Shown in pieces: positions 7,198-41,700 of a stretch of 64,000 nucleotides of DNA (positions are counted from its first letter, which is position 1; each line of letters begins with the position of its first letter). The translations under genes were made by a program, and so were the position numbers. Source of the stretch: Marsupella aquatica (lineage: Eukaryota > Plantae > Marchantiophyta); the NCBI GenBank assembly GCA_973895155.1, contig OZ316894.1, positions 1,628,457-1,692,456 of the forward strand, written 5' to 3'. Below the pieces are notes generated by a model. It was given only the letters and a program-made list of their open reading frames with translations. It made no database searches and was not told the origin of the DNA.

Positions 7198-10100
7198 GAG
7201 GTTTTTCCCCGTGACAGGAAACAGTAAACAGGAATTATCATAACAGCAAAAATGGTCAAAGATAACAGGAGTTTTGTGGGCAATGCCGAAAGAAAATTCC
7301 CACTTTAGGGACCAAAATTATACTACAATTTGAACTGAGCAACTGTAATATATGTAACAGATACAATTATTATAGACATAAATCTTTACTAGCGCCAAAG
7401 ATTTTCTACACATGAAGGCATCATTTGATAATAGCTCAAGAATGCTTGCAACAAAAATCATCACAAGAGCAATAGAAGTACATATAAATCCTAACCAAGT
7501 AAGTATTTGCAATTCTTGAGTGTTTGGATGTGGAATGTTATGCTCTCTCGAGTTGATCCCTCATTTAGCGCAAGCCAACTCTAGTGCATCTCCATTGACA
7601 TCTAAAGATAATCAATGAACTTGCTCTTCCCCTATAGATGAGACGGGAGATGAGATTGTCTTGCTGATTGAGTCTTCATTCCTTTGCTAAGCGTAGACAC
7701 TCCATATATGGTGGTCCGCCAAGAGGCAATGGATTGTTGTATATAACATTATGACCAAAGAAACTGTTAGTTCATCTATGTATATACCAATATTCACGCT
7801 CAAACCTATCGTGCACGAAGTCAAAACTATATAAAGATTATAACACAAAAGTTTATTCCCCTTTAGACACCCTAATTGTCATGCTCAAACTAACTTGAAT
7901 TATATTGAATCATACTTTGATTTGGACGTCTAGTAGTCACAAACTATCGATACAGGAGCACATCATATCAAGGGTTCCATGCATCTTCCAAAGTATTACC
8001 TAGAAGATTGTAAATGTGTGGATTGACCAAAGGTTAACATCCTCACGTAGAGTGATATGAGCAAAAAGATATACTCTTGCTATCAAATGCAATACACTCT
8101 GGTCATTTGAATGCTCTAACCAATGATGAGGAGTTTGACATATTGTAAATTTTGATTGAACCGCCTTAGACCATTAGAGGATGCTATGTTCTTTTTTTCT
8201 AGTAACAAGGTCAGCAGCCGTGACATTAGATAATATTAGTGATAATATAACCATTAAAACATTACAAATGATGATATAATATAGTAGCACCACAAACTAA
8301 TATAATAAATTGATAATTAGAGCCATTGCTTTTGACCAAAATTTATAGCAGCGCCTGGCGCTTATCAAAATATATCCTTCAGGCTATAGTCATTTTTGTT
8401 CATATTACCATAGTAGCACTCAACGCCAACAAAGAGTCCTCTTTGGTGAGGTCTCATTTACATAGATATTTCTATATTACTTGCAAAATTGCATGACCTT
8501 CTAAAATATCCTTTGGTGTATTTAACAACAATAGCAAACACAAGAGATAAAACGGTAATACTACTAGTGAAATAGGTGGTATATCAGTAAATAATTAAAG
8601 CTCACAGACTCAAAAAAATGTTTTTCTAGAGGGTTTGGGCCAAAGTCACATTACTAGCTTTTGGCGCTAGTAATGTTCCTTTGTTTTTCTACATTTTTTG
8701 CGTAAAATTTCTCTTGTAAATTTCTCAAAATGGTGCTATTATGGAGGGTCCAACCGAGTGTGACATTACTAGCTCCCGGCGCTAGTAATGTTAATTTATT
8801 TTTATAGCCCAATTTTCTAAAACATTTCTCATAAATACACTCAATATAATGTTATTTTAAAGAGTCCAAGCGAGTGTGATATTACTAGCTCCCGGCGCTA
8901 GTAATGTTAATTTATTTTTATAGCCCAATTTTCTAAAACATTTCTCATAAATACACTCAATATGATGTTATTTTAAAGGGTCCAAGCGAGTGTGACATTA
9001 CTAGCTCCCGGCGCTAGTAATGTTAATTTATTTTTATAGCCCAATTTTCTAAAAAAATTCTCATAAATACATTCAATATGATGTTATTTTAAAGGGTCTA
9101 AGCGAGTGTGACATTACTAGCTCCCGGCGCTAATAATATTTTATCATTTTTGTTACTCTTTGCTTACTTATCTTTTGTAAACATGCACTCATATAGTGTC
9201 ATTTTGGAGTGTCTTGGTGACTTGAATATTACTAGCTCTCGGCGCCAGTAACATTTTTAAATGTTTTATACTAATTTTAGCTCAATTTTTATATAAAAAT
9301 TCTTAAAATAATATCATTCTTAGAGGGGATCAAGCCAAGTAAGATATTACCAACGTCCGACGCTAGTAACATTTTTATCTTTTTTATTAAATTTATTTTA
9401 TGGGTTTATGTTTATTATTTCTTGTAATTAACTCTTGTGCCAAATTTTCTTTAAAAAATGATGGATGTTTCTACACATAAATTTGTCATTTGATGATAGC
9501 ACCTAATACTTTTATCAATCAATACGTCAAATAAATATGATTTATGATAGCGCCTAGGGCTATTATACATTCTGCACAAGATTTTAGGACTATTGAGATA
9601 GCAATTAGGTACTAAATTAGGGATTATATCATATAAATATATTCAATTTGTCTCAATTTCTTTTGCATCTGGAGCTATTATGGGATTTATTCCTAGATTT
9701 AATCCAAGAGTTTAATCTTCATGACCTTTAAACACATCAAATTATGCCAATTTGTATAGTAGAGTATGGCATTACTATCATATTTTCCTTGTTCTATTGT
9801 AGATATTTTGGGGTCACTAGAGAGCGTCAAACTCTAATCCTATTGTAGCCTAAAACTTTTCTCATTTTCTGAAGCACCTCACCTTCTTATGAGAATAATT
9901 TAGAAGTAATTCTAATTTTTTTTATGAAAATAACAACAACCCACATATATAGAATCAACAACTTGAAAAATACAAAAGATGTATTTCTTGAGATTTCCTA
10001 TATTGAATGTTTGATTTAATTAGGAATTAGATAAAAAAATCTTCCAAATGAGGAGTTTTTTGACCAAGAGTGTGTCCCTCACGTAAGCACTCTTTCAATA

Positions 10101-10670
10101 ATCTTGATGATAATGTACACATTAAGTCTCCTTCTTAGAATTTAAAGAGGATCAGATTTGGCCAAATGCAAGAAATACGCACTTGGTTTATAGGAGAAGT
10201 ATATTGCATTTTTGTAAGAGTTCAACAAACATAGGAATTTGTTGTATGTTAATTGTAAATCTTGTGACTATGTAAAAACTATGATGGTATTTTGACTAGT
10301 GTCGGGAGGGGGTGTTAATGATAACCCTTGCCAAAATGCTAAGTATCCACTGACAAAATACAAATTACATACTTTCCAATAAACAATGCACATTTTGTTT
10401 GCCTAACATGTGATGTAATTTGCTAATTATAACCCTTGCAACTAATATGAAAACGTATCATTGTATTTTGGCTAGCGCCCGACGCTAATAAACTTATCTC
10501 ATTATGACAAAAAGCAATAGCCTGGATCATGAATATCATAGAAAATATATTTTTGGCTCTTGAAAATGAATTTTTTTTTTTGTTGTGAGCGCAAAAACTC
10601 CTGTTATCTTCCTTGATTTTTCCTGTTATGATTTTTCCTGTTTACTATTTCCTGTCACGGAGGTCAGGCC
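7198..10670. mobile_element. Non-autonomous Mutator-like element, related to the 17746-28030 element
   Basis: 9-bp TSD CCATGGCTA (7189-7197 and 10671-10679); imperfect TIRs ccgtgacaggaaacagtaaacaggaa / ttcctgtttactatttcctgtcacgg; AT-rich with no intact ORF; carries degenerate TAGCGCCNGGCGCTA motifs. Confidence 0.85.
8640..9370. repeat. Tandem array, about 116-bp unit, about 6 copies, each centred on a near-palindrome ATTACTAGCTCCCGGCGCTAGTAAT
   Basis: cgagtgtgacattactagctcccggcgctagtaatgtt recurs near 8755, 8871, 8987 and 9103, with degenerate copies on both flanks. Confidence 0.9.
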
Positions 10671-11384
10671 CCATGGCTACAGCAAAGTATTCCACACCAG
10701 ATGGTAGGTTTGAAATGTTGTTTGTTAGCCCCGGGGCAGCTCGAGAGGCCTTCAAGCATTGCAGACCCTTAAGTTTGTAGCATTTGATGGGACTCACACA
10801 AGATCTTCTTACCCGCAGATTTTGCTTATAGCCACATTTCTGTGCTCATGCTTGCCTATTGTATGGTGCCCACTGAAAACCCCACACAATGGTTAAGATT
10901 TTTACAATTAATTAGAGATGCTATACCTGAGTTGGCCCTACCAGGAACTGTCTTCATTTCAGACAGAGAAAAGGGTTTGTTGGATGGTGTGGCAGAATTT
11001 TAGAGTATTCCTCACTTAGAGTATTTAGAGAATTTTAGAACAATCCCATCACATTTGGTGGGTTCTTGGCTGTACATTTTCAGCGCTATGTAGCAATTAG
11101 TGGACTCATGTAGTTAGGCATGCATTTGCCCTGCCGGTAATCACATTAATCAGACATCAAAATGTGATAATATACTGTGTACACTCCCCAATTTGAATAA
11201 AATAATGGAATTTATCATGGTATGAAGAGATGTTATACACAGTTAATGTCATATTTTGACCGCAACCCATGATTTGTGTTGACTTCCATGTTGTTTTTTG
11301 TTATCTAGCTATATATGGATAGAATTTTGAATTCTCGAATATCTCAGATGTATGAGATATTGAGATGGGGTGAGATTGGTTAAG

Positions 11385-17510: not shown

Positions 17511-18373
17511 TTATCATTGTTGTTTAAGTACTGATTGCTTGCCACATTGCTGTAGTTAGACGGACTATTCAAACGTTAGATGCTTTCTTTAATAAGCGAC
17601 GAAAGGAATTCTTTAAATATCATCCAGTCATAGATGTACTTCTACAGTAATGCTCCGAGACAGCGCGACATAATTAAATATGTTGAATGGGGACATTGCC
17701 TCACTGAGTTAGTGTGCGAGCACAAAAAGCATTTGGTCCGTAGGGGGGTATAGCCACCGAGACAGCAAACAGGAAAACAGGAATTCTGGTAGCAGTTTTT
17801 TTTTGCTGTTATCAGGAACATGTTGCTGTTACCAGGAAAAGTTAGTCATTGGAACAGGATAATACTTCATTACTTCAAGCCAGATACATCTGAAAAAAAG
17901 CAATATTCATTGCGCTTCATTTACATTCTAGAGCTTAGAACCAACTAACACGGCAATAATTGTTGTCTGAAGATAAGTGAGTCCGGAATCACCAACATAC
18001 TTCTGGAAAATAGTGTCACGGGAAAAAACATTGACATGGTAGGTCCCACCATAAGTAACATAATATTATACGCCAACAATAAGGCAGAAACCACAAATGA
18101 AACTCCAGACAATTTGAAACACCACCGGCGATGGGCTAGCGCCTGGCGCTAGCTAAAATGGAAACAACCAACACATTTAGAAAATGACATTGGATGAATG
18201 CAGAAATTTGGGAAACAAAAATTTAAAATATCATTTGTAGTGGTAGGATTACAATGAAGTAAATGGTAATAAGGAAGACTTCCATCCCAGCGCCAGGCGC
18301 TAACACAAAACTATACCGTTGTAATACGACAAAATATATAACCGTTTCGAGTATCGGACAAATATATCCTTCT

Positions 18374-21300
18374 CTATAAACCATGAGCATTCTCCCTTTC
18401 CAAGATCAGTCGGACTTCTCCAACTGTGAGAATTGGTTGGCTGGTCAAAGTAGATTCCTCAACGTCTAGTTTGAAAACGTTCTTGAAAACCTAGTACAAA
18501 TGTTTGCAAGGCATATATGGATGTCTGCGAGAATGTCGACGATAGAAATCCTCACAAGAACAAGTCTGGAAAATACAAATCTGCACAAAGTAACTATTCG
18601 GCGTCCTTAGATTCTCATGTGTTTGTACTTTGAATTGCTTCCCCCATGAGTTCCCAATAGAAACATCCCACTGTCCCTGGACGGACATGGTCTCTTTTCT
18701 TGCAGATTCAATCCTCTTCATGTGGCCATGGGTCAAGGTCGATCTAGGAACCGTGTTCTTTCCATTCCGACTCCGGAGACGAACAGTGGGTTCCAGAAGA
18801 TTGACTCTCTCTGGAAATAAGTTTACATTGATTCGAAGCTCGAAAAGTGATGGTGGAGGTAGAGGACCGTCTCTTCCTCGGGCTATAGGTATTCCCTGGT
18901 CAAAAAGATACTTCATCTCAGCTTCCGAAACATTTGTTCCTTTTATAACAGGAAGAACATCGGGAAAGGAGGGCAGGTTCACTACACCACGGCGGGGACG
19001 GCTCCGATAACATGTGTTGTTTGGGCAGAACCAAATCATTTCGGCTATGGGTTCCCCCCTGAACATGCGTTGTCCTTTGACAACAATGCCGATGACACCG
19101 TTTGATGAGGGGAACCCAACTTTCTTCACTCTATTTTGGCACTCATCTCTATCGGAACTACCGCCAAATGACGCGTTGCACTGTGGACCGGCCCCAAATC
19201 TTGATGTCCGACGCAGATGCCATGAACCCTGCATGACTTTTGTTTCAAGAACTGGAGATTGGAGCGATGTCTGCTGAAGTACAGTGGGAGCGCTTTGTGG
19301 GTATTGTGTTGAACGTGATTGATGTCGACCCTGCGGTGTACTGAAATCATCACGTTCTACATCCCTCGAATCATCACTTCCTGAGAGATTGACAACGGAA
19401 ATGTCATCAGGTTTTTCTTCCGATACGGAAGCAAACATTGTGTGGTGCAGATTTTTACGCTTGAGTGATCTGGTATTCGACGATGTGATAAGGACTTTAT
19501 CATGCCGGTGGGAGTCTTGTGGCGAGACAATCCCAGTTGCATGTCCTTTCCTCTTGACAGACTTTGTTAGAACATCTCCGTTGAGAGGAACGCTTCTCTC
19601 CAAGTCAAACTCAGCTGCATTGGAGAGGAGCATGTTCATCGCATCCTCGAACAGCTTTGGGGAACCTGCCTGGTCAGCTAAACGGAAAGCCAGTTCCCAT
19701 ATTGTAGGACCTCTTCCTCTACTCAATCCTTTCCGATATGAAATATAGGCTGCAACCTGAGATATAGCTCAATTCTGATCCATTTCACATGCCTCGAAGA
19801 GCCCCACTTTTTCTTTCATTACCCATGCTTTCATTCCTGCGTGAACAGACTCTGATCCGGTACAGTTAGGAATCCTAGCGCCTTCTTCAGCACTTTTGTC
19901 CTGGAATGGCAAAGCATAAACACTAGTAAGAATCCGCGAAACATACTAGCGCCAGGCGCTAGGCAGAACATTTCGACAAAATCATCAATATTATTGTGTA
20001 ATCACATGTTTATGAAAATAAACAGGTCAATATTTGAGATTCAATGACATTATTTGGATTCTTTGGATGGAATGTAGAGGAATGTCATCTCAAAAATGTA
20101 CTTCCACAAAGGAATCTGACTTGCATATTACTAGCGCCAGGCGCTATTACCTACCAAGCGAATAAAATTTCCCCACTGCCTCCAACGCACGACCCACCAC
20201 GATATCCAACTCTGAAGCATGCGGAGCTTCCCAGGTAAGCAGTTACCCGATTGCCACCATAGGTCAATCTCTCTTGAAAGTCGGTAAGCCTCTACAAATG
20301 TCGGTGCGTTCTGTAATTTATCCCATAGCATTCGATGTTCCGCCTGCTTCTCTTCCAACACTCCTTCAACAGAATGGCGATGAAAAGCTTGGTAAAAATG
20401 AAAAGCGTCCGTCCTCTCCCGTTCAGGGTTTGGGTGCCCTCCAAAAAAAACATTTCGGACTGCTAACCATCCGGCTTGGGCATTGTCTGCCATGAAGCCA
20501 TGAATGATTGGATTATCTAACCCATTCTCTTTGGAAACCTCAATCATCAATCTCCAAGCCTTCTCGAACGACGCCGTGTCCTCAGCTTTTAGCTTGCAAG
20601 TAAATATTGTACACAATGCGCGGTAATTATGATCGTAAACATGTGCGCTGAAAGTGACCCAATCCTTGGTCATTCATTTCATGACATCGAAGCTTACCCA
20701 GGCACCTTCAAGCATCCCTCCAGGTTGCATTTGCCGCAAAAGATCCACCCCAGACCCATGGCCTTTGGAAGTCATCTTGAATATGTGAGGCCTGTCTTCT
20801 TGAGACCCTTGACCTGGAAGGATGTACCTCTGCAGAAAAGGCATGTTGATATTCTTTTGATACCGAACGAGAAAATCCAACTCTCCACGGCCTTTCTGGT
20901 CCTGCCTCACACTCCTGAAAAGAGATGCAAACTTCTGTGGAGTAGAAACTACCATTAGAGACTGGAAAATCTCCGTCTCTTCAATATCTTCAATCTCACC
21001 CAGGCTCTCACACAAAGACTGTACAAAAGATCCTGTAGCTACATTTTTAATCCCGGCAGGCGTCCAAGTAGGATTGCCTTCCAATTTCTTTTTAATGACA
21101 TCTTCAACTACCTTTTTTGCACTTCGGGAAAATACCTTACGACAAGGATGGTTGTGGGTGCCCACATGAATCGCAAGGCGAGACATGTGACTACAGGTAT
21201 CTAAGTCAAGCAGAACTTGAGGATACATATAAAACAGTCTTGCAGAGCATGCCTCTACACAAAAAGGGAGCTGTTGGCAATAATGACAAACAACTCCACC

Positions 21301-22140
21301 CTGGTCAATAAACGATCCAACACGGTGAGAGCCTCCAAGTTTTGGGGTACCAGCCCATGCCTTTGCATTCCTCCTCTTCTTTCGGCGGAAGTAGTCACAA
21401 GTTTTATTCCTGCACTCAATAAATCCAGTACAAGTGACTTTACCGAATTCCCAGTATTTTTTGGGCTGCACGTTTGCAGTGGTAGGAAATATTCTTGTCC
21501 AGATGTAGCAATCCTTGGTTCGGTCCATGTCCCGTAGACGGAATCCTTTTGAAAGAATTCCTGACGACGGAGGCAACTCAAACACAACGTCTCCATTGTA
21601 CTTTGGAGGCAAACAAGGTACTTGTTCATGCCGGAAGTTTCCAGCCGAAATGAACCTCGAAAGTTCGCTGGACCCAGTTGACTTGAGCAGCGCGTCCATT
21701 GCACTTCTCCGGTATACAATATGGGATTGCAACGATGGCATCTCCTCTTTGACCAAGACAACGTCAGGCGCTGAAGGCTCCACAAAGGGGATCCTTGGTG
21801 TCTCCTCATCATCACTATTGGAAAGAGCAACTACATCCACGGGATCCCTCTGAGGGGATTGCCGGTCTCCTTCATTTGGTTCCCGAACGACAATGGAGTA
21901 GCGCAACCCAGCATTAAGGTGCCAAAATCTCACGCCTTCATCGACATCAAAAAGTGCGACAAATTCAAAGTCATTGGCTTCCGTTCCCTCCTGAACGATT
22001 GCCTCTATGTCATTCATGCACAAATCAAACCTTCCACAAAGATAAACCTCACTTATTTGCCTGTACCTTTCGTCCATAGACACTGGAATGGAAACGATGT
22101 CATCGGTGGACATACGTGTAACTATGATTGACTGAGACAT
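18374..22140 (-). pseudogene. MULE-type transposase (GCM/WRKY-like Zn finger, DDE core, C-terminal SWIM); exons about 22140-20155 and 19900-18374; three premature stops
   Basis: CTGFIECRNKTC...CHYC...C.ARL...HVGTHNH; catalytic FDVMK, FMADNAQA, DAFH (DxxH) and TGSESVH; SWIM CSCEDF...CKHLY. In-frame stops at 20674, 19769 and 18491. Confidence 0.8.
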
Positions 22141-23139
22141 CACAGAAGCCTCGGAAGCAAATGAGCGCTGGAAAATTATGAATCGAAATGCCACCGACGA
22201 GGGCTATTATTGATCCTGACTAACAGTTCCCTAAAGCCGTTATAATAAGACAATCCTCTGACACCATAAATGTATTTTGTCGTTATATCAACGTCATTTA
22301 CGATCAACGTCATTAACAATAAACGTCATTTAGGAAGAACCATATTGTTCTAGAAATATCAAATGATGAATAGCGCCAGGCGCTATTAAAAACAATACAA
22401 AAGTAGAGGCTCATGCAGAGTCAATTTATGTGTAGCGCCTGGCGCTATTAATAACAATCCAAAAGTTTAGGGCCCGTCTAACGTAAATTTATGTGTAGCG
22501 CCAGGCGCTAATAAAAGAAAATGACATAAAACTAATTCCTAAAGGAGACACTGGATGATTAGCGCCAGGCGCTAATATTGATATCATTAATATTATGAAC
22601 GTCTAAAATGGTAAAAAGTAGGAGCAGGAGCCTTCAAAAGGCTGAAAAGGATTTGTTTTTTGCTAGCGCCGGGCGCTAGTTTTCTTTTGTATCAGAAATA
22701 TGATAAAATCGGATTTAGGGGAAGTAATGGAGTATTAAAGACTCTTATGGCTCTATATTGAATTCCCAACTGACATTAAAATTGAAGATTTTAGGCCTTG
22801 GAAATTACTAGCGCCGGGCGCTACTATTTGGTGAGTAAAAATGAATTCGATATATTCTCAGGTTTTCCTTTCAACGGTCATATTCAACGGTAACTATAGG
22901 TTGCGTGACCCTCAATACATCGATCCCCTTATGTGTTGTCGAATAAGATAACGACATGTGTCATAGATCCAGGCCACGAGTTCAGTTTCCTTAGCGTATA
23001 TGTCATGCTCTGTGCTCTAGATTCTTCTTATTTCCCATGTTAAGTACAGTACGATCGAAGCTGTGTGATGGGTTTTTGCCGTTCGCGGTACGGAAAGAGC
23101 ACGGTGGTCATCACTACTTCCTTTGCCCTTGTGCGAGCA

Positions 23140-26100
23140 ATGGACCCTGCCTTTTCCTCCTCTCAATGCTTTAGTGGAAACGGGCACAGAGAGGTCGTTC
23201 CCTCGCAAACATCTGAGTGCTCATTTTCAGGATCTGTGTATAGTCGTCGAGTGACTCGATCCGCTGCTTTGCGAGATCCTGCAGCACAACCCGCTGTATC
23301 ATTCCCGAATAGCAAGAGAGGGAAGATGGATGATTCTGATTCGTTTGCTGTGGAGGACTTCGGAGAGACGTCACTGACTGTTTATGATGTGATCTCCAAA
23401 CACATTATGTCGTTTGGAAAAGATTTTCGAGGACATGACAAGGATCCGCCAAGGATTCCAATGTGCCGACTACTCCATATGGAAGTAGTGCGGACCTTAC
23501 AGAAGGGAAGTCCTTCGATAGAGAAGCTGAAAGACTCCTTTTAGAGCACAGGATACAATTCGAAGATCGGCATGTTGTTTTACGTCCAACCAACAGATTC
23601 CAATGGAGAAGTTCAGATCTGCACGCCAGAGATCCGTGCTTCCTGGGATGCAATTTGGGTCGCAGAGAATGAAAAGTTTGAGGCGGAATGTGCTACCAAC
23701 CCTGACTTCTCCGTCCTACAGGATAATATGTTTTCTGTGTTTGATGGAAACCATCGACTCTATGCATGGTCCATCATCACGAAGGAGAATCCGGATGATG
23801 TGAAATACCATCCTCGTGTCCAGTGCACAATATTCAAGGGAGAAAAGGGGTCCTTGATCGAGATTGAGGCGGCGATGCACACTGTTAACCAGTAAGTGTC
23901 TCTTCCAATATATTTCTAATGTAATCTATGATCATAGTGTTTCACTAGCGCCGGGCGCTACTGACTCCCTCTCTCATTTTCAGGCTTGGGCAGGCAGTGG
24001 TCGAACCCTCTTGGATACTTGATGCAGACCGTATCAACCGAATTCTCTCGAATGAACTCGATTACTAAAAGTCTATCATTGACGCTGCAAACTTCAAGAA
24101 GTTTGGGCAGATCATGCAGAAAACACGGAAGGGATCGTGGTATACGAAAAAAATGCCTCAAGAAGCACTTCTGTACATCTTGTGTGAGAATAAGATCAAG
24201 TCTTATTCTCGACAGTTTAAGATGGATCTGGAACATGCTGCCGCTCAGGGTACACCTTGGTCTCCCGGAGAGATTTCAAAAAGACATGCAGTGATGATGA
24301 AGGAGGCAACAAAGGATTGGGCGATAAAGGTGTCAAAAATTACTCCTCTGTTAAGCCCCGCCTTTGAGGATTTCATCCAGACATGTGCTGAGATGTACCC
24401 CCTCACAGAGAAGAATAAGAAAGAGAAGAAGCCGGATGCAGTTGTCTGTACAATGGATCGAGCAAGATTGTTTACCGCTGTCTCTGCCCTCGACCCTAAG
24501 CTGAGGAGTACCCTTCTGGTTGCCCATTGTACACCGGAGTTGAGGAAACAATTCTTCCATCCATAGAGTGTAAATGATGATCCAGTGAAGCAATGGTGCC
24601 ATACCTGGCAAACTTGGAACACTGTGGAGGGAATCGCCGTTGGTTTGCTGCAAACCTCCCTACGCCAGGTCAGTGATATAGTCCCCGCCAATCGGTTGCA
24701 GGAGTGGGAGTGTGAGTCGATCGAATCGCTTATTGAAATAGTCTCAAATGACTTCAAGAAATTTGGGGACGCTGTGAAAGGCAAGTTTTTTAATACAATG
24801 TGGCCTTCCAAGTATCCCGACAAGGCTGACTACACCCTCAAGAATCAGAAGAGGGCCAAACGATACCTGTACCGTTTCTTCATGCCTATGGAGATTGTGA
24901 AGCCAGATTACTTTTGGGCATACCCTGTTGCTTTCCAAAAGTGGATCGTTGTTCCCGAAGGAGACATACTGGCCGACGTGTATTCAATGTATCCCGCTGA
25001 AGGGTGTCTTCCACCAAGGGAACTATCAGAATGGGAGAGAATTCATTGTCCTTGGTATTTGGACACCGATAGATAGGACTCTCCATTCGGAGACACTGAG
25101 AAAGACACATTTCATAAGCTTTCAAAAACTCAGGTCCCTCCCAAGTTTGTGTCCGACATGAAGCAGGGAATCAAAGGTGATGTGAGCAAGTCGGCGTCAG
25201 AATTGCAAGCGGTGTGCGAAACTACAGTTGTTCATGTTGATCAAAGTCGCAAACCCAGAGCCAAAGCAAAAACCGAAGCTACGGCACCGAGTACCTCAAC
25301 GCGGTCCGCCAAAAAACGTAAGTTGTCATTCAGCTTGGAGCCTCACAGTTTGGTTAGCGCCAGGCGCTGCTATATGACTATGACTATTGGTTTGTTCAAT
25401 TGGTTTGGACAGCGCCTGGCGCTATTATTCAGCATTGAATAAACTCTGCTCTTTTTCCTTTAGGTGGGAGAAAGTTTGACGCTGCAACCGATGAAACAAA
25501 AGTAGATGCCACTCCGGAGCCTTCTGAAGCCAATACCGGTGCCCAGTTAGACCCAGTAACTCCAATTGACAAAGCGAAAGAGATTGTCCCTCTTGATGCA
25601 ACTAGTACAAAGAAGAAGAAGAAAAGGGCAATTCAAGCAGGAGAATCTTCCCGAGATGATGCCGCTGGAACTGGCGTTCAGAGAGATGTGGGAACCTTCA
25701 AGAGCAAATCTTCTAGGCATTGCATGGTGGAAACAAGTATCCAAGAATTTATTGATACTGCTTTCAACAAAGCAGCAAAACCAGATTGGGTGACTGATGC
25801 AGAGAAATGGGGAAAGGACTTAATCAAGTCGGGTTCCCGAGAAAAGGGAGTAATCAGAGGAGGAAAAGAAAGATCATTTGGTGTCAATGCAGGATTCATC
25901 TATCTTCCTATTGGACTTAAACCTACGCTCATGGACCGTCGGGTTCCAAAAGTGGAATGTACTAGACCACACAGTTCCCAGTTCTTTCTTCAAAGCGATG
26001 GACCCGTTCCTTTCTGATGATGGCATGCTTGCGATCTTGTATTCTGATGACCATGACCAGGTCTCGCAAGTCATTTCAGCATGCCACCAGTCCAAAAAGT

Positions 26101-27249
26101 TCCATTGTGTCAATTCTCACAATGTCGTCATGTCTATGCCCATGTACAGAGCAAAGACCGATATTCAGGTACAGATCATTGAATCTCTTGTTTATTGTTA
26201 GCGCCTGGCGCTAACTTAGTCTTTGCTGTTGTTCTCAAGTCATTACCCGTCGGTTCATAATTTGAGCCTAACGTGTGCGATGCGTGCAGGTATTTACCCT
26301 TAGGCTAGACATATTTTGTCGGACTTCTTCAAAAGGGAAGGTACCAAAGGATCCAAGGTTTAAGCCTCTTTCAATAAGTGAAGATCCTTCGATCTCTAAC
26401 TTGATTGGGCTTCCAACCTTGAAGACAGATCATTTCTCGGAGTTGGATTTTGCTAGGAACGCTTGTCTTTCGGTTGGTTTTATGCAATCGGTGATAGAGC
26501 TTTTTACTCTTCCTGGAGATATTGTCCTTGACTGGACTGTAGGTTCAGGAAGCACATTCATTGCTGGTGATTTTTCTGGTCGTTTCGTGATTGGGTTGGA
26601 AAATAGGCGTGAGTTTGTTGAGACCGCATCAAGGGTTTTCTTAGAACTTCTTGATCCCAAGCATGTTCCGACATTGCCTCCTCCCGCGACCAATTTAAGT
26701 GGTCGCAAAAAGAAAGATAGGCTCCGATCTGTTCTCAATTTTGATTCCGATGAAGAGGAAGGTACCTCTGGAGACGTCGGAGATGACACAGAGAAAACCC
26801 AGGAGGAAGATTCTTTGGAGAAGAGCGAAGACTCAGACGAGTAATGTTCTTCCAGTAAGCTTCTTTATCCTTTCAAGTGTTGTTGACAATTCTGGGTTCT
26901 TGCTCTCTTATCTCCTAAACTTATTTTTTTTCCGTTTTACTGGATCAGGTCAGAATGGAATCTAAGGAAGCGTTTCCAACTCCGGAGGAGACTAGCTAGG
27001 AATGTAATTGTCACTCCTGAGAAGCCATTTGTTTTTCCCTCATACGCTGAAAATGCCGCTAGGAGGGTTGACAAAATTAGAACGCTTTGTTGGGAAACAA
27101 AAGGTCTATGTCTTCAAAGGGAAGCAGATAGGAAGTTCATGAAGAACCCTTATATAGATGATGTTTCCCGAAGCAAGTACATTGATGACGAAGCTGAGTC
27201 AACGGACAGATCTGAAAGCTCCGCATCAGAAACATCTGGTAGTTTATAG
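23140..27249 (+). pseudogene. Multi-exon gene: N-terminal ParB/Srx-like domain, helical middle region, C-terminal beta-class N4/N6 DNA-methyltransferase-like domain; carries premature stops
   Basis: ParB-like IEKLKDSF.STGY...FYV...VFDGNHRLYAW. MTase-like GFIYLPIG (degenerate motif IV), FFKAMDPFLSDDGMLAIL and FMQSVIELFTLPGDIVLDWTVGSGSTFIAGDFSGRFVIGLE (motif I region). The ORF pieces are in frame across single stops; GT-AG introns at about 23892-23983, 25318-25463 and 26169-26289. Confidence 0.7.
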
Positions 27250-30124
27250 TTAGCAATGGGGTTTTCTTAGAATACGTCGTTTAATGTTTCAATATGTAAG
27301 CATTTCGATGAATTGGCTGATTTTAAGCCCTTTCAACTTTTACTAGCGCCAGGCGCTCCTCAAACATACTGTCTTTATTTTATTTTTATTTCAGATTCTT
27401 CAAGTTTGAGTTATGAGGACGTGTGCTGAGGTGCAATATTGGCTAGCGCCGGGCGCTTCCCAATCTTGTAAAGGTTCTTGGGTGTGGATTCTTTCCTGTT
27501 TGTGGTTGCATAAATGTTTTGCTTTCCGTATGATTTTGTGGTATTAGATGAACTGGCGTGAACAGTCGTGGGTCTTTGCAGCTAGATGTCTTCTGGAAAG
27601 ACCCTGATCGGGAGGAGGCTGGAATAGACGATGGTTGTCAACTGGGATTACTGTAGTAGCTCCAGGCGCAACTGAAAGGTTTTGGTTAATTATAATTGAC
27701 TTGAATAACCTTCTGAGATCGAACATTTCATAACCCCCTTCATTAATTATCCTCCGAGAGTGCAATTGGTACAAATTATAAACTCTTCACAGCGCCCGGC
27801 GCTAGCAAAAATTGTGGAGAGTTCCTACCGCTACGAGTTTCTTATATTTACTCATGTTTGTCTTTTAAAAAAACCTCACCTTTGGCGTTATTTTTACCAG
27901 CGCCGGGTGCTACCAGAAAAAAATTTCAAAACTTTGAGACTAGAATTTTCCTGTTACCAGTATTTTTGCCTGTTACCAGTTTCTGTTATGAATACCTGTT
28001 TCCTGTTTTCCTGCCTTTTGTAAACACCTCCCGTAGGGAAAGTTGTTGTTTCCGAATTCCCTTTACAAAGTCAGATCGATGAGATGCATTGGCCATACAA
28101 AATAATGGAACATTCGTTTTCAATCTTTGAGTCTCTGCGGTCCTATTTTCAAAATCAGCTGCTGTCCAAGGGAGGCTGAGTACAAATTCTTGTTACTTCA
28201 TTATCCCATCCCGTTGCGTAGGATTTGTAGTCAACTACAACCTCTGCTTCTGGATCGTTTACTGTTTGGGCTTGAATGGTTTATATTGGCAAATGTTTTA
28301 ATCTTTTTCTTAGCAAGTACTCTCGATTTCCCTGCGTTACCTCAAGTTTTCAATTACCGCCAGGCCTGGTTTAGTTTGCCATTGCCATCTTGTCTCAGAC
28401 GTGTGTTCATCACTCTGCTGTCCTGAAGGCGCAGGACTGCATTTGTAGGAACAAAATTATCCTAAGCTGCACGAAACCGCTCAAGGGAAAAAGGCCACGG
28501 GCTGTCACTGTACCAAACACCTATAGTGTGGAAGCCATGGCGAGCACAGGATTCTAAGTCAATTACCATCCCAGAAATGTTCCTAGTTTGAGAGCTCACT
28601 TAAATGCCAGGACGCTTCGAATACGTTTACTTAGTTTGTTTCAAACTCAGGCTAATCCCAGAATGTCACTTACCTAGGACTATAGTCCTCAGAACTTTCC
28701 CGTGTACAACCTGATAGGATTATGGATCCCCAACGTTCATCGAGTTTGTCCACTTGCGAAAAGGTGTGGTCAGCTCTGCTTTCCTTGGACTTTTCTCCCT
28801 TTTTCCCAGCAGTTCCCTTATCGGTTAGACGAACTTAAAGCCCATATAGACACAGACTTTTGCAAAAACGCCCGGATGGACAAGGACGACTCGGATGGAC
28901 ACAGGCCGAAGTTGCATTTATGCTTGTATAACACATATTGGCTGCATGTTCCAAGGGTGACCTGTAAAGAGCTGTTTGACCGGGAGCAGGAGGTTTTCAG
29001 TCGGTCCATCCGGTTGTCTATCCATATCCCGGTTTCCCTTCCTCAACAACGGCTTCAGTAGTCCTATCGACGCTTTGGCAGAAGTACATGGTTAACACAA
29101 AGGCCTCGACCACAGCGACACATTTCTCTAGGTTTAGACATAATGTGCATAGAGCACTTAACACATAGCACTATCGTCGCGTGATCAGAATCAATCTTGA
29201 TGGAGAGGAAATTGGAAGCATTCAGCATTTTATGTTCTATGTGTATGGGCCCAAAGCAACGTTCACATCGGCACAGGGGAGGCAAAAACGAGCACGAGAA
29301 GTCTTTCGAGGATAAGAAGCTGCATACTGTGCTGCATGATCGTGACTTGCCCAGCTGACTTGGGACCAGCGCTATCGGGACCAGCTACAATCGCTAGCAG
29401 CGCTATGTAGAGTTGGAGGCTAGATGAGAGCTAAGTGCTCTGTGTAGACAAGCATCAGTTGAAGGTCACATTCATACATAGTGGCCAGATCGAGCAGAGT
29501 AGGGGACACAAAGGAATTCAAGGTCACGAAGGAGGGCGAGAATGTGCGTGACCTAGCGCACTGATTTGCATGTGAATTGTAAGTACCGGAAGGGTCCAGT
29601 CTGCTGACCTTTAGGCGTTGCGTAATGTGCTGTGGTTGAGGTCGCCTAGCTCAATCAGGACGGGAAATCACAACAGCTCAACAGCACCTGCCCTGCTCAA
29701 TTGCAAATCATTGCTGGAATCAAACCAAGCTCAATAGCAGCACGCCCAGCTGAATCAAAAAATCATTGTAGCTCACCAGTGTCATTGAGATTTGTAAGTT
29801 CTTCATGAATGAATCGTTGTTGAATGATTAGTCTGCCTCTATCGCGTCTGCAAATGTCTCGAATTCCTTGGCAGTCAAAACTGAGTGTGGAGCTTTCAAA
29901 TGATATGTCAATGAGCAATTGAAGATTGTGACTCCAGGGAAGCATTGTTAGCCCACATCAGGCTTTGCCAAGCATTGTGAAGGTAATTGTTTCCAACTTA
30001 CATTAGTCTCGTAGATGCATTATGTTTGCTACAATAGGAAATTCATCCTACAAATGAAGTTTGGTCTCCTGTAGTATTAATTGTCAGAGATGCATGTGCT
30101 TGCAGGTTTAATTGGTCACAAGTC

Positions 30125-32599: not shown

Positions 32600-35500
32600 C
32601 ACAGCATGTTCACACTCACTGAATGTCTTGTGAATATCATGTATAGTGTGACCAACCAAAGTTTATGAAGCCATCCCTATATCCTACAGCTCCCTACTTT
32701 GTTGCGATTCCTCATACCATTGAGAGAAAGATATTTTGGGTGCTGGTCAACTATCCCAAATGATCCATTCAGACTCAATCTTGTCCCGCTCCATAGTGTG
32801 AATAGAGCAGACCCTCAAAAAATCAGCAGACCTATTCATGCGGACCTGTGCTCTTTGGTTTGGGATAACACATCCTCGACGGTTATGCCCTGCCTGGCCA
32901 CAAACACCACACTTGTGGTGTTGTTTGGCTGCAATGCGCTCAGATGCAATGACTTGCTCAAATCTATACACAAACATGTGAAAATTAGCCTCCATTTAAG
33001 AGAATATGTATCAAGTCTGAACATGTCACATGTTGCAGTACTATTTCATTCATATGTAAGTCATACCTTGATGCCATTCGCTTCAGTGACCTGGATGCCT
33101 TCTTCTTCGATGAAACAACAAGAGGTTGGAGACACTTTGAATCTTTATGTAATCCATCTAATGAAATTGGGGAAAGACTTATTGTCTAAGCCAATACCTG
33201 CAAGCCAAGCAAGACAACATCATGAATTTTTTACTACAAAAACTGGGAATTTCAAAAATGGTACATTATAAAAGTTTAGATTGTAATGGTGTCCCACTGA
33301 CCTGTGATTTGGCCATCCAAATGTTGTCAATGTACACTTTTTCATTTAAACCACGATTGTGGCAAAATTTAATAGCATGAACACATGGAAACCCCATCTC
33401 AGCCCAGTCCTTGCATTCACATTGTCGTGACTTCACATCTAGAGCCCATTGTCCTTGGGAATCACACATCAAAGCAGTAGTGGCTGATGATGGACGCTCC
33501 TCCACCCCACCTGCTTTAGTATACAATGTATTGAGCATCCATGTTGCATGTTGCGTCAAGCTATTATCACCTGCAGGCCAAGCTACAATGCACAAGTATC
33601 GAGGTTAATATAGATTCATTCATGCATCCGTAAGTAGGAGAATTAAATGTCTTACGATTTTAGTTACATCTTACTTGCTGCATCAACTGCTCTGCTGTAA
33701 TGCTTGGTCATCGTGTAGTCCCAAAGTTCCTTGCATATTAGTAGTGCGGGCAGTTTGCGAATTGGTTTAATCACTCCATTTAAAATCTCCACCACGTTTG
33801 AGGTAGTATGACCCCACCTACATGATGAACACATACAGTAATAAAAAACCCAAGATCGTTTTGGTGAAAACAAATAACAGGAGTACTGTTGTGGAAACTG
33901 TGCATAGGCTATACCTTGGTGCTGGGAAGGCATGACGTGAGTAGAGCTGAGGGTCAATAGCTCGAATATATCGAATCCCAGCCTCTTGACGGTCATTTAG
34001 TGGTTGGTACTTGTTCAACATGCGGTCAAATTCGGATTTGCGGACCTCACGAGCCAACTGAGCACTCAAAACAGAGACATATGAGTGGACATTTGACTAA
34101 ACTTAGTGATATGCAGTGAAGAACTCACAGAAGGGGTTGGAATAGATGAATTGAGTAAAGGGGTTCAATCACATGTACCTTCATAAACCAGTCACCAAGT
34201 GCTTTGTCTGAGTTGGTTATGACATTTGCCCTAATGTGTCATGTACAAAATGAGTGATGAATGTCACCCCAGATGGTTTGTACTGCTGGAATCAAACCTT
34301 TATCATGATCTGAGACAATGACAGTCTCACTCTCCATCCTCATTCTAGGATAGGCTCTATCAACATGAGCCATGAACCAAATCCAATTTTCCTTGTTCTC
34401 CACGCCAACAACAGCCCATGCTAGTAATAGAATATGGTTGTTACAGTCAAAGGTTGTTGCCAGCAATATAATTATGGGAAATTCTCCTCCTGTTATGAAA
34501 ACATGACATCAGTGATGCAGGTGCAGGTGCTAGTGGTGATAAAGTTGAGTAAAAAAAAGTTCAAGTCTTTGTCTTGTTACCTGTGTGCGTGGCATCCATC
34601 CCAACAAAGGGTCGAACATATATGGATGAAGGCATTTTGTGAAGATGATGGTGCCATAAAAATTCTGCGAAATTGATTGTCAGATTCATATGTTTCGCAC
34701 AATACGTGTGAGCCAGGGTCAGTATGTTTGACCTTAGCCACATAGGCTGGAATCATTTGGAAGGATGTGCCATGATCACCACCAAGCATTCAAATGACTG
34801 TCCGCCGTGCTCGCTGTGCAGTCCATACTGTAGTATCAGCAGAATGGATGTCACGAATGTGCCCTCTGAGGTCTTTATTGGATGTGCTTGGGTTAACACG
34901 GATGCTTGACTGGACCTTTTCCTCCACCCATTGCCTCTTATGAGCACCATGTCTCCACTTGTGTTTAGATTGTGAACAGGTGTGGATAAGGTAGCTTTTT
35001 TGAATGCAAACTCTGCCACTTCCTTTCATGTGCCTCACATAAATTTCAGCTTTGCATGAGTCCAAATCATTCACAACAAACCCTCTACACTTACCCATGA
35101 ATCTGGTTTTATTCCTAGCAATTCTAGTGAAACTCCATCCTGCCTTGGCCTCATATTCATCCAATGCTCTATTAAAATCATTCCAAGTAACATATTGTTG
35201 CCCTTTTACCAGTTTCAGTTCCAACTCGGATGGTTGATGATTGTTCACAAATCCTGCGTGCCCCATGCCCCATGATTGCCAATGAAGTTAAATAGTGAAT
35301 GCAGAAAGATTATATGCTGAAAACATGTATGTACGTGGTGGAGGTAGATAGGGTGTACCTGATTCTGCTGGATCCAACTCACAGTGCCACTCATCCTGGA
35401 CAAGCTCACTGATATCAATACAAGGATTCTTCTCAGGGTTATCTCTGAATTCTGGATGGTCTTCACAGTCTGATTCAGAACCCAATGTCCATTCAGTATC

Positions 35501-36636: not shown

Positions 36637-38730
36637 AAAACGACTAAACGTACTTAACGTATGAACCATGGTTAGGTTCCAGTCATGAGCTCCCGGTAAT
36701 CCATTTTGGGTGTCACTGGGTATTGTTGTGACACTGTCAACCTTATGTGTCCATCCGGGTCGTCATCGCAAAAGTCTGTGTCTATATGGGCTTTAAGTTC
36801 CGGTTAGACAGAAAGTTTTTGAAATAAAAAAGAGACAAAAAAGTCTTTTCACATGTCGACATCCCTGCAGAACGACTGTATGCGTTGCTCAATGTCCCAG
36901 GAGTCGGATCTCGTGGAAGAACATGGCCGTGCCTGTTGGTCAATCGATTGACTGAACGAACCATCTGTCGTATTGTCCAGTAGGAGAATCTTTAGTCTAT
37001 TATTTATTAATACTTTGTGGGTCCGCCTGCGAGCAAAGGCTGCAGAGTGATGCTGAAAGATGAGGGAGGCTGGCGTGGTGTTGACGAAGTGCACTTCCTG
37101 TTGCTCCTGCAGGCTCTAGTACGAGAGATTCTTAGTTGAAAGGAAATCCATCGATCGAACAGAGAGTTCTCGGGACTTTGCACTGCATCTTCCGTAGTTC
37201 CATGAGGAAACTTATCCCCGAATTTATCCTTAATGATTGCAGCACATTCGATGTCCAAACGTTGTAGCGAGATCCTTCTCCAAAGGGATGGCTATTGTAC
37301 GAAGTCGGTGTGGCCTCCAAGACATAGCTCAGAGCACTCTGACATGGTTTGCAGGTCTGCACCCTTTTCGTTTCGACACTCCAATGTCATAGAGTAGAAA
37401 CTTCTCTGGGTATGGCAATGCTTCGATTGGGCCGGGGTGGCTCGATCAGCCCGGGATACAGTAACTACAGTAGCTCGACAGTTAACTGGTCTTTCCTTCC
37501 TTCCCCACAACCGATATCTTAGAACTAGTAGATATACAGTGAAGCTGAAAACTTTCCTCTTGCACGAAGACTAAGTCTAACATTGTACTTGCGGCGGCCT
37601 TGCTACGGGCGCATCTCCTTACGAGTAGTCTTGGGTTGCATCTGTTTGTGCGGGTGTGGGTATTGGGGCCGCAGTTCGCTAGACAGGCGCTTGACCTTCT
37701 CTGCATCCAGATAGATTCTAGCTTTCAAAGTAATAAAATCTACTTAAGTTGAAAACTGTGTCGTGCTTGCAATTGAGAGTGGGTCGATTATAATTGCCGG
37801 TGCATATTGTTTAGAGCACTCTATGTGTGTGAGGGGTTGGGGGACCGGGCTCTTGGTGAAGGGTGATATACACTTTGCAGTCTACAGACAATTTAATGGC
37901 GTCGAAGATCACAGTCATCCAGCATGGGTCCAAATTACCTTTTGCAGGCTCCTGCTGTCTCACGACAATCTAGGCGGATCTTGTGGCGTCCAAACTCTTC
38001 TCCAGGACTGCACAGCTGAAAGTAACCTGCTCCATTTGCTGTCGCTCCACCGATTGGGCTGGAAAGCACGGCTGAACTTGATTAGTGTGCAATTGGGACG
38101 GATGATATCGGACATCGGCTATATCGTTCTATACCTAGATCTAGACGGTCAGCATTTGATGTATGCTCGATCCTACACCACTAGTGCCGCTCCAGTTTTC
38201 AGTCGCTATGATTCGAGGTCTCGCAAATTCATAGCCGTGCTAGGCATCACCTGGCCTTGATGATCCTTGTGACCCTTGTATATGCCAACCATACCCAATT
38301 TCTCCAAGCTCTCTTGGAACCTTTGATCTGATTAAGTGTCACTCTGAATCTGTGGAACAGATGAGCATTTCACTGGCTCTTGGAAGTGGTGAGGACAACT
38401 CTTGTTGGGTTAGTAATGGTTCAACTCAACAGGGGTTCTCCCTGAATCATGAGGATGCAGCATTGCTCAAATATTAAGGACACATAACTCCGGCGACGAA
38501 CTGAGTACGCGGGTAAGGCCACTCCACGAAGAAATACATTTTTTCTGCAAGACATTCATGTCCAATGGTAGTAGCGAATTCGTTTTCCAAACGACATCGC
38601 TATAATTATGCAGTTTCGGTGGCCTCACAGACATAGCAGCGACGTTAATGTGTGAAGGCCTCCGAGCTTAGATACTGTTATCGTAATCGCTGACGGCTTT
38701 CTAATCCGTGTCTGGTCGGACTGCAGATTC

Positions 38731-41700
38731 ATGGCGGTGGTAAGTGAAGTCGTTGCAGTATGCAGTTCAATCCTCGGCATTGTGTCAAAGATCGACAATG
38801 TCAAGGAAGACTGGTTCACTGCATCAGCCGAGTACAAAAGTGAAGCGGAAATCCTCCGCTCAAGGCTTAGCTCCTACGAGGAGCAAGTCCGCATCCATCA
38901 GCAACCAGTGGACAGTACTATGATGAAGACTTTGAAGAGAGCCGAATCAACACTGAAGAGGGCGGAAGCAAGATTGAAGGGCCTGGAGACAAGCGTCAAC
39001 AGCAACCAGTGCTGTTCGCAAATCTGGTGGTTGTATGCAAAGGTGACCATGACCCTTTTCCCAGAGAAATTAGAGTGCACATTGAAGAAGGTGAACCAGG
39101 ACCTTGATGGCATCCCCAAAATACTCAAGGACGAACAGGAACTCTCTGGTCTACTGCGAGAAGCAGGCAAGAATCGAGCCATCTCTACAGTTGTCCACGA
39201 TAACGATAATAAATATGTGCCAATAGAAAAGTCACAGTCTGCGGTCATTCAAGCCATCGAAGATTCTGATGGCCCTCCCATGATACTACTGCATGGTGGA
39301 GTAGGTAAAGGCAAATCTACTCTTGCCAGATACATGTGTGAGCGCTACGGGCCATTTGGAGAAAAAAAAGGCGTCTTTGATCACGTGATTGTGGTGTCGT
39401 GTGCTAATAGTTCCATATCTGATCTCGCCACCAAGCAATATGAAATATTGGAGCAGCTTTCTCCCACGAGTTTAACCGAGGAAAGCAGTTCAAAATCTGG
39501 AACTGGAAAATCTGGGGAGAGTGTGGGCTCAAAATCTAGAATTGCAAGAGCTCTCCAAAATTTCTTCATTGGCAAGAAGATTCTGATGGTCTTAGACGAC
39601 GTTTCAGATAAGGGATTTCTGTACAAAATGTGGGAGGCTGCGAGAGATGGTAAAGATGATAAGATCCTCATCACTTCCCAATGGTCCAACATATGCGACG
39701 ACTTTAAACATGACTCTTTGCTTATTACGATGGAAGATCCTACCAAAGAGGAAGCGAGGCAAATCCTTGCTTCTCTTGTGGGGCTGGAGAGTAATAGAAT
39801 TCCTGAGAATATACAGGTTAGTTCCTCGAGCACATTTCACCCCGGTCGTTTATTGTGGAGGTACTTGTTTTGTTAAGTTGTCTGCTGTACATCTGTCTAA
39901 TGTCTACTAACTAGATTTAGTCCTTACTGTATGTTTTATCTTTGTATACAGGGGATAGCAGATGAGATGATCAAAGCGACAGCGGGAAATCCATTAGCTT
40001 TGGCATGTTTGGCAAGTAACTTTGCTTATGTAAAGGATGCTAAAGATAAAACAAAGAAGCGGGATTGGCAAGCTGCTTGGAGAGAGTTATCTCAGTTGCT
40101 AGGCAATAAAGCGATGGCTATCGTGGCAGGGCAGAATAGTGAGACTGCCGCTAGAAGCCTGTGGGGTGCCATGAAGATTTGTATAGAATCTCTTCAAACA
40201 GAGGGTGCAAAACGCACACTCTTCTTGATGTATGCATGTAAAGGAGAATCGGTTCCTGAAGAGGTCCTGCGGATTTTGTGTGCTGGTATGAAGATGTCAA
40301 ATTCTATTTTCAAGAGGTCCATAGATGAATTGCGCATGCGAGAGCTACTGAAACCTACAACGGATACATTAGCATGGAAGATGAATTTGGGGAACGGACC
40401 AAATGACGAAGTGTCTCCTGCATGGTCCATACAGTCTTTAGTGAAGCTCTATATGGAACGGGATGTGGTAGGGAAACAGGAAATGAGGGCAGTGATTGGG
40501 GCATTGGTTGGTGATGACCAGTTTCCACCTGAGTCAAGCACCAAATACAAGGTACACGACTATGAAACCGAAATATTGGAGATTGCAACCGGGACTGAAA
40601 CAGCAACCGTGGAGAGTGATGAGGTGAGAGTTACAATTGCTCTCTGTGCTCTGTACTTTGACCGCCGCCATACCGATCAAGGCGTGACTCAAGCCGTGGC
40701 TAAGGCTTCCAAAACATCCAATATTGAAGACGCTGAAGACAACATTAATGATCTGAGGAGGAAGGCGATTGAGCCGTTGATATGGCTGCTCGACAAGCCT
40801 GAAGAGGACGACGAATGGACAGAAATGGATAAATGCTGTGTGAGGAAGGTACTGTCCTGTCCCCCTTGAGTATGTTCTTTCCTTTGTAACTTACGTCAGT
40901 CCGAATTGAAGTTAGAGAATCATTCGAGTGACTTTTATACTTGGGTACTCACAGATCATGTTTGCGCATGACCGATTGAGTCAACTTTTAATAGCCATAC
41001 TTCAGCTATTCTTCGCAACTTGGCACTTCTTTTGAAAACCAAAAGGACGGTCCTCTGTAAAATATACAATGTCAACTTTTACAGTGAAAGTAGTGTTTGA
41101 TAGCACGTGGCTGAGTGGTAAATGCAAGTAACATTTATCTTGTAACTCTATTGGACAGAATAACTATTCAAATTCTATATGTGATAGTTTTGAAAGTCTA
41201 AGTGCGAGTCTTGGAAGATTGATTTCTTATTGTAGTTGAACAGCCATGTGTCTTAGTGAGGTTTTCCTTTCTCTTCGACAGGAGTTCTTATCTACATTCA
41301 TCTAATCGAGGTTGTCTGCAATTATATATTGTCACTGAATTGTTTTAGAATTGTAAATCACTTTCTTTGCAGGTTGTTCTTGACTACATATGCAAGCGCC
41401 AGCTAGATAACGAGAACATCACTTACCTCTTGAAGTTGGCCCCTTGTCCTTCTGCACAGTTGGCCACTCTTGAGGCTATCATTCACATAACACGGATAGA
41501 AGAAACGCCCCTGCTCAACGTAAACACAATCAGCTTTTTGCAAGCTGTAGTTGACCTTATGAACTTGAAGGAAGGTTTCCGCACCAGTGTCCAAGAAGCA
41601 GCCTCTTTAGCCCTGTCTCGTCTTTGTGTGAAGGCCGCGTACGACAAATCAGCAACCCTTGTTGCTAACTTGTCGCCTGTTCTGGACGTGGTGGTACGCT

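Follow-up and report, generated by a model that had tools for sequence, protein, structure and literature searches.

A Mutator-like element (MULE) in the liverwort Marsupella aquatica carries, beside a decayed transposase gene, a divergent five-exon gene (gene 2) whose predicted product joins a ParB-like domain to a beta-class amino-methyltransferase (MTase) fold, and an array of one 13-bp palindrome runs through its non-coding DNA. The element lies at 17746–28030 of a 64,000-nucleotide stretch of contig OZ316894.1 (assembly GCA_973895155.1, positions 1,628,457 to 1,692,456), which we call the window and whose numbering is used throughout (Table 1). We give roughly even chances to the reading that the ParB-like protein loads at the palindromes and keeps the element active, by analogy with the VANC proteins of VANDAL elements, with a pseudo-methyltransferase as part of the same protein.

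A palindrome array in non-coding DNA

The palindrome, AGCGCCNGGCGCT, is present in the element in 17 exact copies and 1 one-mismatch copy, and the window as a whole has 24 matches against 0.02 expected. With up to three mismatches allowed, the element has 19 copies, a second, non-autonomous element (the partner) has 9 and the other 50.2 kb have none. Coding DNA fills 68% of the element, yet it overlaps none of the 19 copies, which are placed in the divergent promoter (six, the first four spaced 62–64 bp), in introns of gene 2 (four, with none in intron 4), in the transposase intron (two) and behind the genes (seven). The core of the palindrome is CCNGG, and the flanks of the window's copies differ while the 13-mer stays constant.

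The partner has no open reading frame (ORF) of at least 150 amino acids. It is bounded by the target-site duplication (TSD) CATGGCTA at 7190–7197 and 10672–10679, where the match extends to 10 bp, and it holds nine exact or variant palindromes, four of them within a 116-bp tandem repeat (variant AGCTCCCGGCGCT). Its insertion site is an apparent decayed transposase relic (about 6700–7190 and 10680–11000), presumably of MuDR type by its motifs.

Boundaries and state of the element

An earlier note, made from the letters of this stretch, had described a TSD-bounded, pseudogenised element with a transposase and an intron-containing second gene, and this description holds. The sequence CCGTAGGG stands at both ends and is the sole direct repeat of at least 7 bp between them. 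The terminal inverted repeats (TIRs) are degenerate, with a local alignment score of 56 against 24.8 ± 4.3 (maximum 43) in 300 shuffles, and all four ends of element and partner align in register. TSD length is 8 bp in the element and 8–10 bp in the partner; MULE TSDs are about 9–11 bp long. The TIRs are built on an ACAG(G/C)-type repeat motif that differs from the palindrome, so the element ends have a separate candidate site for the transposase.

Both genes are broken, by seven stops and one frameshift in total: four stops and the frameshift in gene 2, three stops in the transposase. The gene 2 region is covered in 29–30 of 30 bins by contigs of four sequencing runs, made from three organisms, and the gene copies in these runs are free of the stop at 24066 and of the extra base at 25948, which marks the window's element as one copy of a multi-copy family, and as lightly decayed. 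The fifth exon of gene 2, the palindrome array and the partner go beyond what the earlier note had described.

As a separate observation, the summed contig depth of run X6 reaches ~1900–2600 over 26373–26674 (MTase motif I) against <150 elsewhere, which suggests a high-copy derivative containing only the motif I piece.

The transposase reads on the minus strand. Its DDE-core ORF fell among MULE clusters of the ESM Atlas (24/30 matches PF10551, score 0.92, 156/256 features), and the sequence contains a CxC...CxH SWIM-type pattern. A Pfam scan gave no family for any of the pieces (none at E ≤ 1 for the N-terminal zinc domain), so that support for a MULE-type DDE transposase is moderate and the GCM label of the earlier note is a putative one, given by the resemblance of the N-terminal Cys/His pattern. 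Premature stops lie at 20674 in exon 1 and at 19769 and 18491 in exon 2; a homologue at a related locus, L028, continues beyond 18491.

Gene 2 encodes a predicted ParB-like domain

Gene 2 is colinear with an intact protein of Riccia sorocarpa, P0153 (1207 amino acids). The two sequence blocks on which the earlier note had built were located at 23737–23760 (VFDGNHRL) and 26515–26556 (the C-terminal motif I block). The reading frame is open from 23044, so that the start may be further upstream than the 23326 given in Table 1. Exon 3 has YLPI as its motif IV (25901–25912) and one extra base near 25948. Exon 4 matches PF01555 (E 3.7e-9, above cut-off) and M1.HpyAVI/CcrM/MboIIA, and exon 5 resembles the C-terminal ends of Riccia homologues (E 7e-6 in a search of 185 proteins).

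AlphaFold was run on residues 147–1175 of P0153 with a 94-row alignment, and structure searches with the model matched both a ParB/Srx-type and an amino-MTase fold, as had been predicted for the two ends of the protein. The predicted local distance difference test (pLDDT) score averages 75 and is about 90 in both end domains; exon 1 folded from its single sequence was uninformative (pLDDT 37). Model residues 4–183 match five ParB/Srx members: KorB (Z 7.8, root-mean-square deviation (rmsd) 2.6, 95 aligned), PadC (Z 7.2), sulfiredoxin (Z 5.9, aligned over 89/89 residues), Pnob8 ParB-N (Z 5.8) and SerK (Z 5.3). The fold thus speaks for a ParB/Srx domain in the Riccia homologue; sequence profiles did not confirm ParB, and Pfam, PHROGs and NCBIfam assigned no family to the ParB or middle parts. 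Of 149 matches, 98 have the motif [DE]GNHR. In 16 close rows its G, N and H do not vary, nor does an Asn downstream of them, and DGNHR and this Asn are the best conserved positions; we infer that they are equivalent to the GxxR-type motif and Asn of ParB.

Homodimer prediction for the ParB and middle region of P0153 gave 0.67 against 0.00 for the best control, with runs agreeing in at least 50% of contacts and pLDDT of at least 56; the mark is reached by 21/30 solved homodimers and 0/23 monomers (17/29 and 0/30 among eukaryotes). The predicted interface is the ParB domain, where residue 328 contacts His274 of the partner chain. In the ESM Atlas the same region (P0153 150–480) is nearest to fungal DUF3723 clusters (score 0.97, 196/256 features), a likeness to be taken as a lead, as Pfam reported DUF3723 for no homologue. 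This language-model similarity also raises the possibility that DUF3723, a conserved Starship cargo, is itself ParB-like.

The methyltransferase fold has a degenerate motif IV

The C-terminal domain has the beta-class amino-MTase fold that had been claimed for it, with matches to CcrM (Foldseek E 4e-10), M.BceJIV (Z 18.8, rmsd 2.9, 213 aligned) and N4CMT (Z 16.5) at 12–18% identity in the structure searches; motif IV precedes motif I, as in the beta class, and the PF01555 match agrees. The S-adenosylmethionine (SAM)-binding motif I, GD[IV]V[IL]D[FW]xxGxG, was located in 29 rows, with an exact or close match to this pattern.

The family as a whole has a degenerate motif IV. In 32 rows, which are not 32 independent events since 22 come from paralogues within Riccia sorocarpa and pseudogenes account for several, position 1 is D or N in 29, position 2 is Pro in none, position 3 is Pro in 28 and position 4 is aromatic in one; the full (D/N/S)PP(Y/F/W) is found in 0/32, and one fern row reads DVPF. 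The catalytic Asp is also absent in the window (YLPI), in Calypogeia (FLPN) and in P0179 (ALPT). The idea that YLPI arose from a D by a single-base change private to this copy was dropped, as the nearest homologue has F there.

In N4CMT, changing SPPY to APPA (first and last residues replaced) is reported to abolish activity (PMC8885841). With this precedent, the degenerate motif IV makes the domain most likely a pseudo-enzyme, which we hold with good confidence from sequence, and by its motif IV the protein falls outside the active beta-class MTases. The suggestion that the element marks its own DNA with N4-methylcytosine (4mC) or N6-methyladenine (6mA) fares badly on the family-wide loss of the motif IV aromatic; the earlier caveat of a catalytically dead protein is the likelier case, the nearest relatives having F or A at the Asp position.

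Some related loci pair the gene with a transposase and with other palindromes

A HMMER search with exon 1 gave 229 representatives (E ≤ 0.001); among ten sampled, six are from Riccia sorocarpa and two from Adiantum nelumboides. A search with the MTase part added 30 relatives, including 25 from Riccia and one from Calypogeia fissa, the last being the nearest named MTase relative of the window's gene (35% over 295 amino acids). Word-based protein searches with exons 2 and 4 found nothing. Relatives thus occur in liverworts and a fern, and the gene is multi-copy in every annotated genome seen.

A metagenome scan gave 165 confirmed matches, and the 80 of these that were listed form 53 distinct groups, our L-numbered loci. 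Of the 18 groups with at least 5 kb of upstream DNA, 7 have a related transposase there in the opposite orientation, as do two groups with less; a transposase start can be seen by eye at L006, and L025 has a single stray downstream fragment. Profile search found no upstream transposase in the other 11 of the 18, four of which (L030, L039, L063, L080) have long terminal repeat (LTR) retrotransposon domains upstream, in a scan covering 117/157 listed ORFs from 22 loci. The MTase segment follows downstream on the same strand in 13/21 groups with enough DNA and never on the other strand. A TIR and TSD search at 13 related loci recovered no bounded element, the copies being decayed or truncated. 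The sequencing-run copies and these loci together speak for a multi-copy family associated with a MULE-type transposase in divergent orientation.

We infer a horizontal origin of gene 2, as the earlier note had proposed, from the prokaryote-type fold alone; the viral contigs, prokaryotic genomes, phages and plasmids searched contained no sequence related to the ParB-like domain or to the full-length protein, so no donor was identified. Separately, a domain of the bacterial solute-binding-protein type (PF13343, E 4e-8) is encoded at L056:4060–4440, in DNA that looks plant-like, with a ParB-like gene 4.5 kb downstream.

None of the 53 loci contains the palindrome of the window. Upstream regions with at least five copies of one palindrome numbered 10/30 among related loci and 0/37 among controls (distal flanks and the window; Fisher p 1e-4). 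At L006, GAGGTGCC-N6-GGCACCTC occurs 16 times, twice in an intron, and L060, L018, L045 and the L059 group each have a palindrome of their own. In a protein tree of 42 hand-picked rows, the sister ParB-like proteins of L006 and L060 (99/91 support) go with the similar motifs GGTGCC-N6-GGCACC and GGTGGCC-N6-GGCCACC, and the clade of L030, L041, L045, L059 and L080 has AGCT-cored motifs in common; likeness of motifs between sister proteins fits co-evolution. Such element-specific arrays back the VANC-like self-targeting logic that had been suggested. An array at L035 was set aside, lying 3 kb downstream within a 50-bp tandem repeat.

A candidate loading system and its alternatives

In the mechanism that we favour, the ParB-type nucleotide-binding domain would pair into a dimer that loads on the repeated palindrome, a parS-like site read by the helical middle domain. 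Binding of a nucleoside triphosphate at DGNHR would close the clamp, which could then spread over the 10-kb element from promoter, intron and subterminal sites; the net result would be, as for VANC, to counter silencing or to activate the divergent promoter. The pseudo-MTase, its SAM pocket kept, may bind DNA, shield CG/CHG sites of the palindrome or recruit partners. Each subfamily would possess a protein–motif pair of its own, on which non-autonomous copies would draw in trans.

Several points weigh against this proposal. The related loci are kin, which inflates the Fisher p, the five-copy threshold was set after a first look at the arrays, 20 of the 30 related upstream regions fall below it, and L014, with a near-intact gene, has no recurring intronic palindrome. 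Transposase and ParB-like gene are co-inherited, so concordance of motif and tree cannot identify the binder. On the structural side, the ParB Z-scores are all below 8 (middling for the tool) and come from a 1029-residue query, yet all fall on one domain; a ParB-domain profile gave no relevant sequence match in the PDB; Pfam returned for the ParB part only DndB (E 0.066, 2/53 rows); and a whole-protein structure search, without an informative match for the helical middle domain, identified no helix-turn-helix (HTH) there. The dimer prediction used adenosine triphosphate (ATP) as a stand-in, on the Riccia homologue rather than the window's protein, and its pass may come from resemblance to ParB dimers of solved structure. 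KorB, to which the fold is closest, is a repressor and not an activator.

There is a minor but real chance that the palindromes are bound instead by the N-terminal zinc domain of the transposase, for self-activation or synapsis, and that the ParB/pseudo-MTase protein acts elsewhere, as a helper. Sequence-specific activation of cognate copies is within the reach of MULE transposases (10.64898/2026.08.24.746577), the partner keeps the motif as expected for any trans-acting element protein, and motifs would track the element tree in both cases; the element ends, however, bear a different repeated motif, the palindromes lie at least 120 bp inside and in introns of both genes, and a two-fold site suits the predicted ParB-domain dimer.

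Rather improbable, in our view, is a clamp that binds the palindromes in order to repress over long range, as KorB does, or to assist transposition (by gathering the ends or controlling copy number), and not to counter host silencing. KorB, which heads the fold matches, is a clamp whose silencing reaches far from its site (PMC11790492), and the array is densest in the divergent promoter, but the intronic and element-wide sites resemble the VANC layout (PMC5735166) and the non-coding partner has no promoter of its own needing repression.

We likewise see little likelihood in an active amino-MTase that works with an unusual motif IV and marks the element by writing 4mC or 6mA on or close to the palindrome. 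The complete beta-class fold (M.BceJIV and N4CMT), the retained motif I, the prevalence of D/N and Pro at motif IV positions 1 and 3, the fern DVPF and the record of CCNGG-type sites as N4C targets, with CCSGG named (PMC8885841), would all suit a writer. The scarcity of aromatics at position 4 and the lack of Pro at position 2 count against one, as do the missing Asp in the window, Calypogeia and P0179, and the palindromes of other subfamilies, which have no CCNGG core.

It is very improbable that the element captured gene 2 as cargo of no use to it and that tandem duplication gave rise to the palindromes as a side effect: many arrays do lie within tandem repeats and 11/18 loci show no transposase by profile search, but the window's copies keep the 13-mer amid differing flanks, the divergent layout recurs in distant subfamilies, four of the negative loci have LTR retrotransposon domains upstream and the gene is multi-copy wherever annotated genomes were seen.

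Comparison with known systems

Like VANDAL/VANC, the element is a MULE with an extra gene and family-specific short motifs in non-coding DNA, including introns and tandem repeats, and also in non-autonomous targets (PMC5735166). In the published account, VANC motifs are 8–9 bp, non-palindromic and same-oriented (PMC5735166), whereas those found here are 12–24-bp palindromes and the protein has ParB and MTase folds.

With ParB–parS and the ParB-like regulators KorB (PMC11790492) and BisD (PMC12409273), both described from bacterial mobile elements, the system would have in common a ParB/Srx fold, a GxxR-type motif with a conserved Asn, a predicted dimer through the ParB domain and palindromes clustered on the mobile element that encodes the protein. 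It differs in being eukaryotic, intron-containing and on a DDE transposon, in DGNHR where those proteins have GERR or GARR, in a large insertion in the domain, in having neither ParA nor an identified HTH, and in its fused pseudo-MTase.

The beta-class relatives CcrM, M.BceJIV, PvuII, bdelloid N4CMT (PMC8885841) and Marchantia DN4MT1 (10.1101/2021.02.12.428880) have the same fold, motif order and motif I, whereas here (D/S)PPY is lost and the gene is transposon-borne and multi-copy. N4CMT and DN4MT1 are host genes with SPPY that silence or mark. Eukaryotic ParB-linked MTases, and an inactive MTase domain kept in the transposon DIRS1, are reported by Iyer et al. 2016 (PMC4738411), there as group-2 MTases fused to a ParB-type HTH (chlorophytes, chytrids) or as retrotransposon domains; we saw there no description of a ParB-N fusion with a beta-class MTase on a land-plant MULE. 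Fungal DUF3723 (PF12520), to which the Atlas likeness points, also rides a eukaryotic mobile element as Starship cargo, although Starships use a tyrosine recombinase (10.1101/2021.12.13.472469).

We found no description of the element or of the fusion in the literature, subscription papers being mostly outside the search, as were supplements (that of PMC4738411 could list such proteins), nor any report in the literature searched of a ParB-type clamp with cognate sites on a eukaryotic chromosome. By these analogies, the element most likely works like VANC with KorB-like parts.

Features of the window

Table 1 Coordinates of the element, its genes, its palindromes and the partner element
Feature	Positions	Strand	Remarks
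Non-autonomous partner	7198–10671		AT-rich, 3.5 kb, related TIRs
Left TSD	17738–17745		CCGTAGGG
MULE-type element	17746–28030		8-bp TSD, decayed transposase, divergent five-exon gene
Left degenerate TIR	17746–17860	+	Short ACAG(G/C)-type repeats after 16 variable bases
Palindromes downstream of transposase	18138–18301		18138, 18289
Transposase exon 2	18377–19904	-	TGSESVH segment with putative catalytic Glu, SWIM-type finger; putative bounds
Transposase intron	19905–20151	-	Putative; two palindromes (19948, 20133)
Transposase exon 1	20152–22143	-	Cys/His-rich N-terminal part, first two DDE Asp, DxxH motif
Six promoter palindromes	22372–22822		Starts 22372, 22434, 22497, 22561, 22665, 22810
Gene 2 exon 1	23326–23892	+	ParB/Srx-fold domain: IP[LM]CR..VR, DGNHR 23743–23757, conserved Asn; stop 23542
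Gene 2 intronic palindromes	23947–26212		Intron 1 23947; intron 2 25356, 25411; intron 3 26200
Gene 2 exon 2	23985–25317	+	Helical middle domain, then linker; stops 24066, 24567, 25074
Gene 2 exon 3	25464–26168	+	Linker, N-terminal half of beta-class MTase, degenerate motif IV
Gene 2 exon 4	26290–26840	+	MTase motif I GDIVLDWTVGSGST (26515–26556), acidic tail
Gene 2 probable exon 5	26950–27249 (about)	+	PEK-F-FPSYA...NPYIDD; putative splice sites
Palindromes downstream of gene 2	27345–27911		Exact 27345, 27445, 27791; degenerate 27899, ~27658
Right degenerate TIR	27920–28030	-	ACAGG-type repeats
Right TSD	28031–28038		CCGTAGGG

Elsewhere in the window, a host gene at 38656–42326 has a P-loop (GGVGKGKST ... 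LMVLDDV), presumably NB-ARC-like, followed by an ARM-repeat-like exon with a close paralogue at 1422–2414; the two suggest a tandem immune-receptor-like family. ORFs at 59095–59802 and 60521–61249 have Cys/His patterns and repeats, which we presume to be PHD-finger-like and BRCT-like, and are possibly cargo of another element. A fragment at 34790–35287, presumably like the MuDR N-terminal zinc domain, is another candidate Mutator relic.

Implications

With natural candidate pairs of protein and palindrome in several subfamilies, specificity and co-evolution could be tested directly in Marchantia or Physcomitrium, and such pairs could give orthogonal tools for opening silenced chromatin. The finding also suggests a candidate function for DUF3723 in Starships. 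More broadly, and tentatively, a transposon family of non-seed land plants may run a bacterial-style parS/ParB system in eukaryotic chromatin, with a nucleotide-gated sliding clamp that loads at family palindromes and spreads over the element and an MTase-fold module that blocks or reads host methylation, of which Starship DUF3723 proteins would be distant members. Were a sliding clamp shown, the system would be categorically new. If the proposed loading at palindromes is true, a ParB-type clamp and its cognate sites operate on a eukaryotic chromosome, and these plants would hold a second, independent solution to the VANC problem, one transposon protein recognising and covering its whole element, built from bacterial parts.

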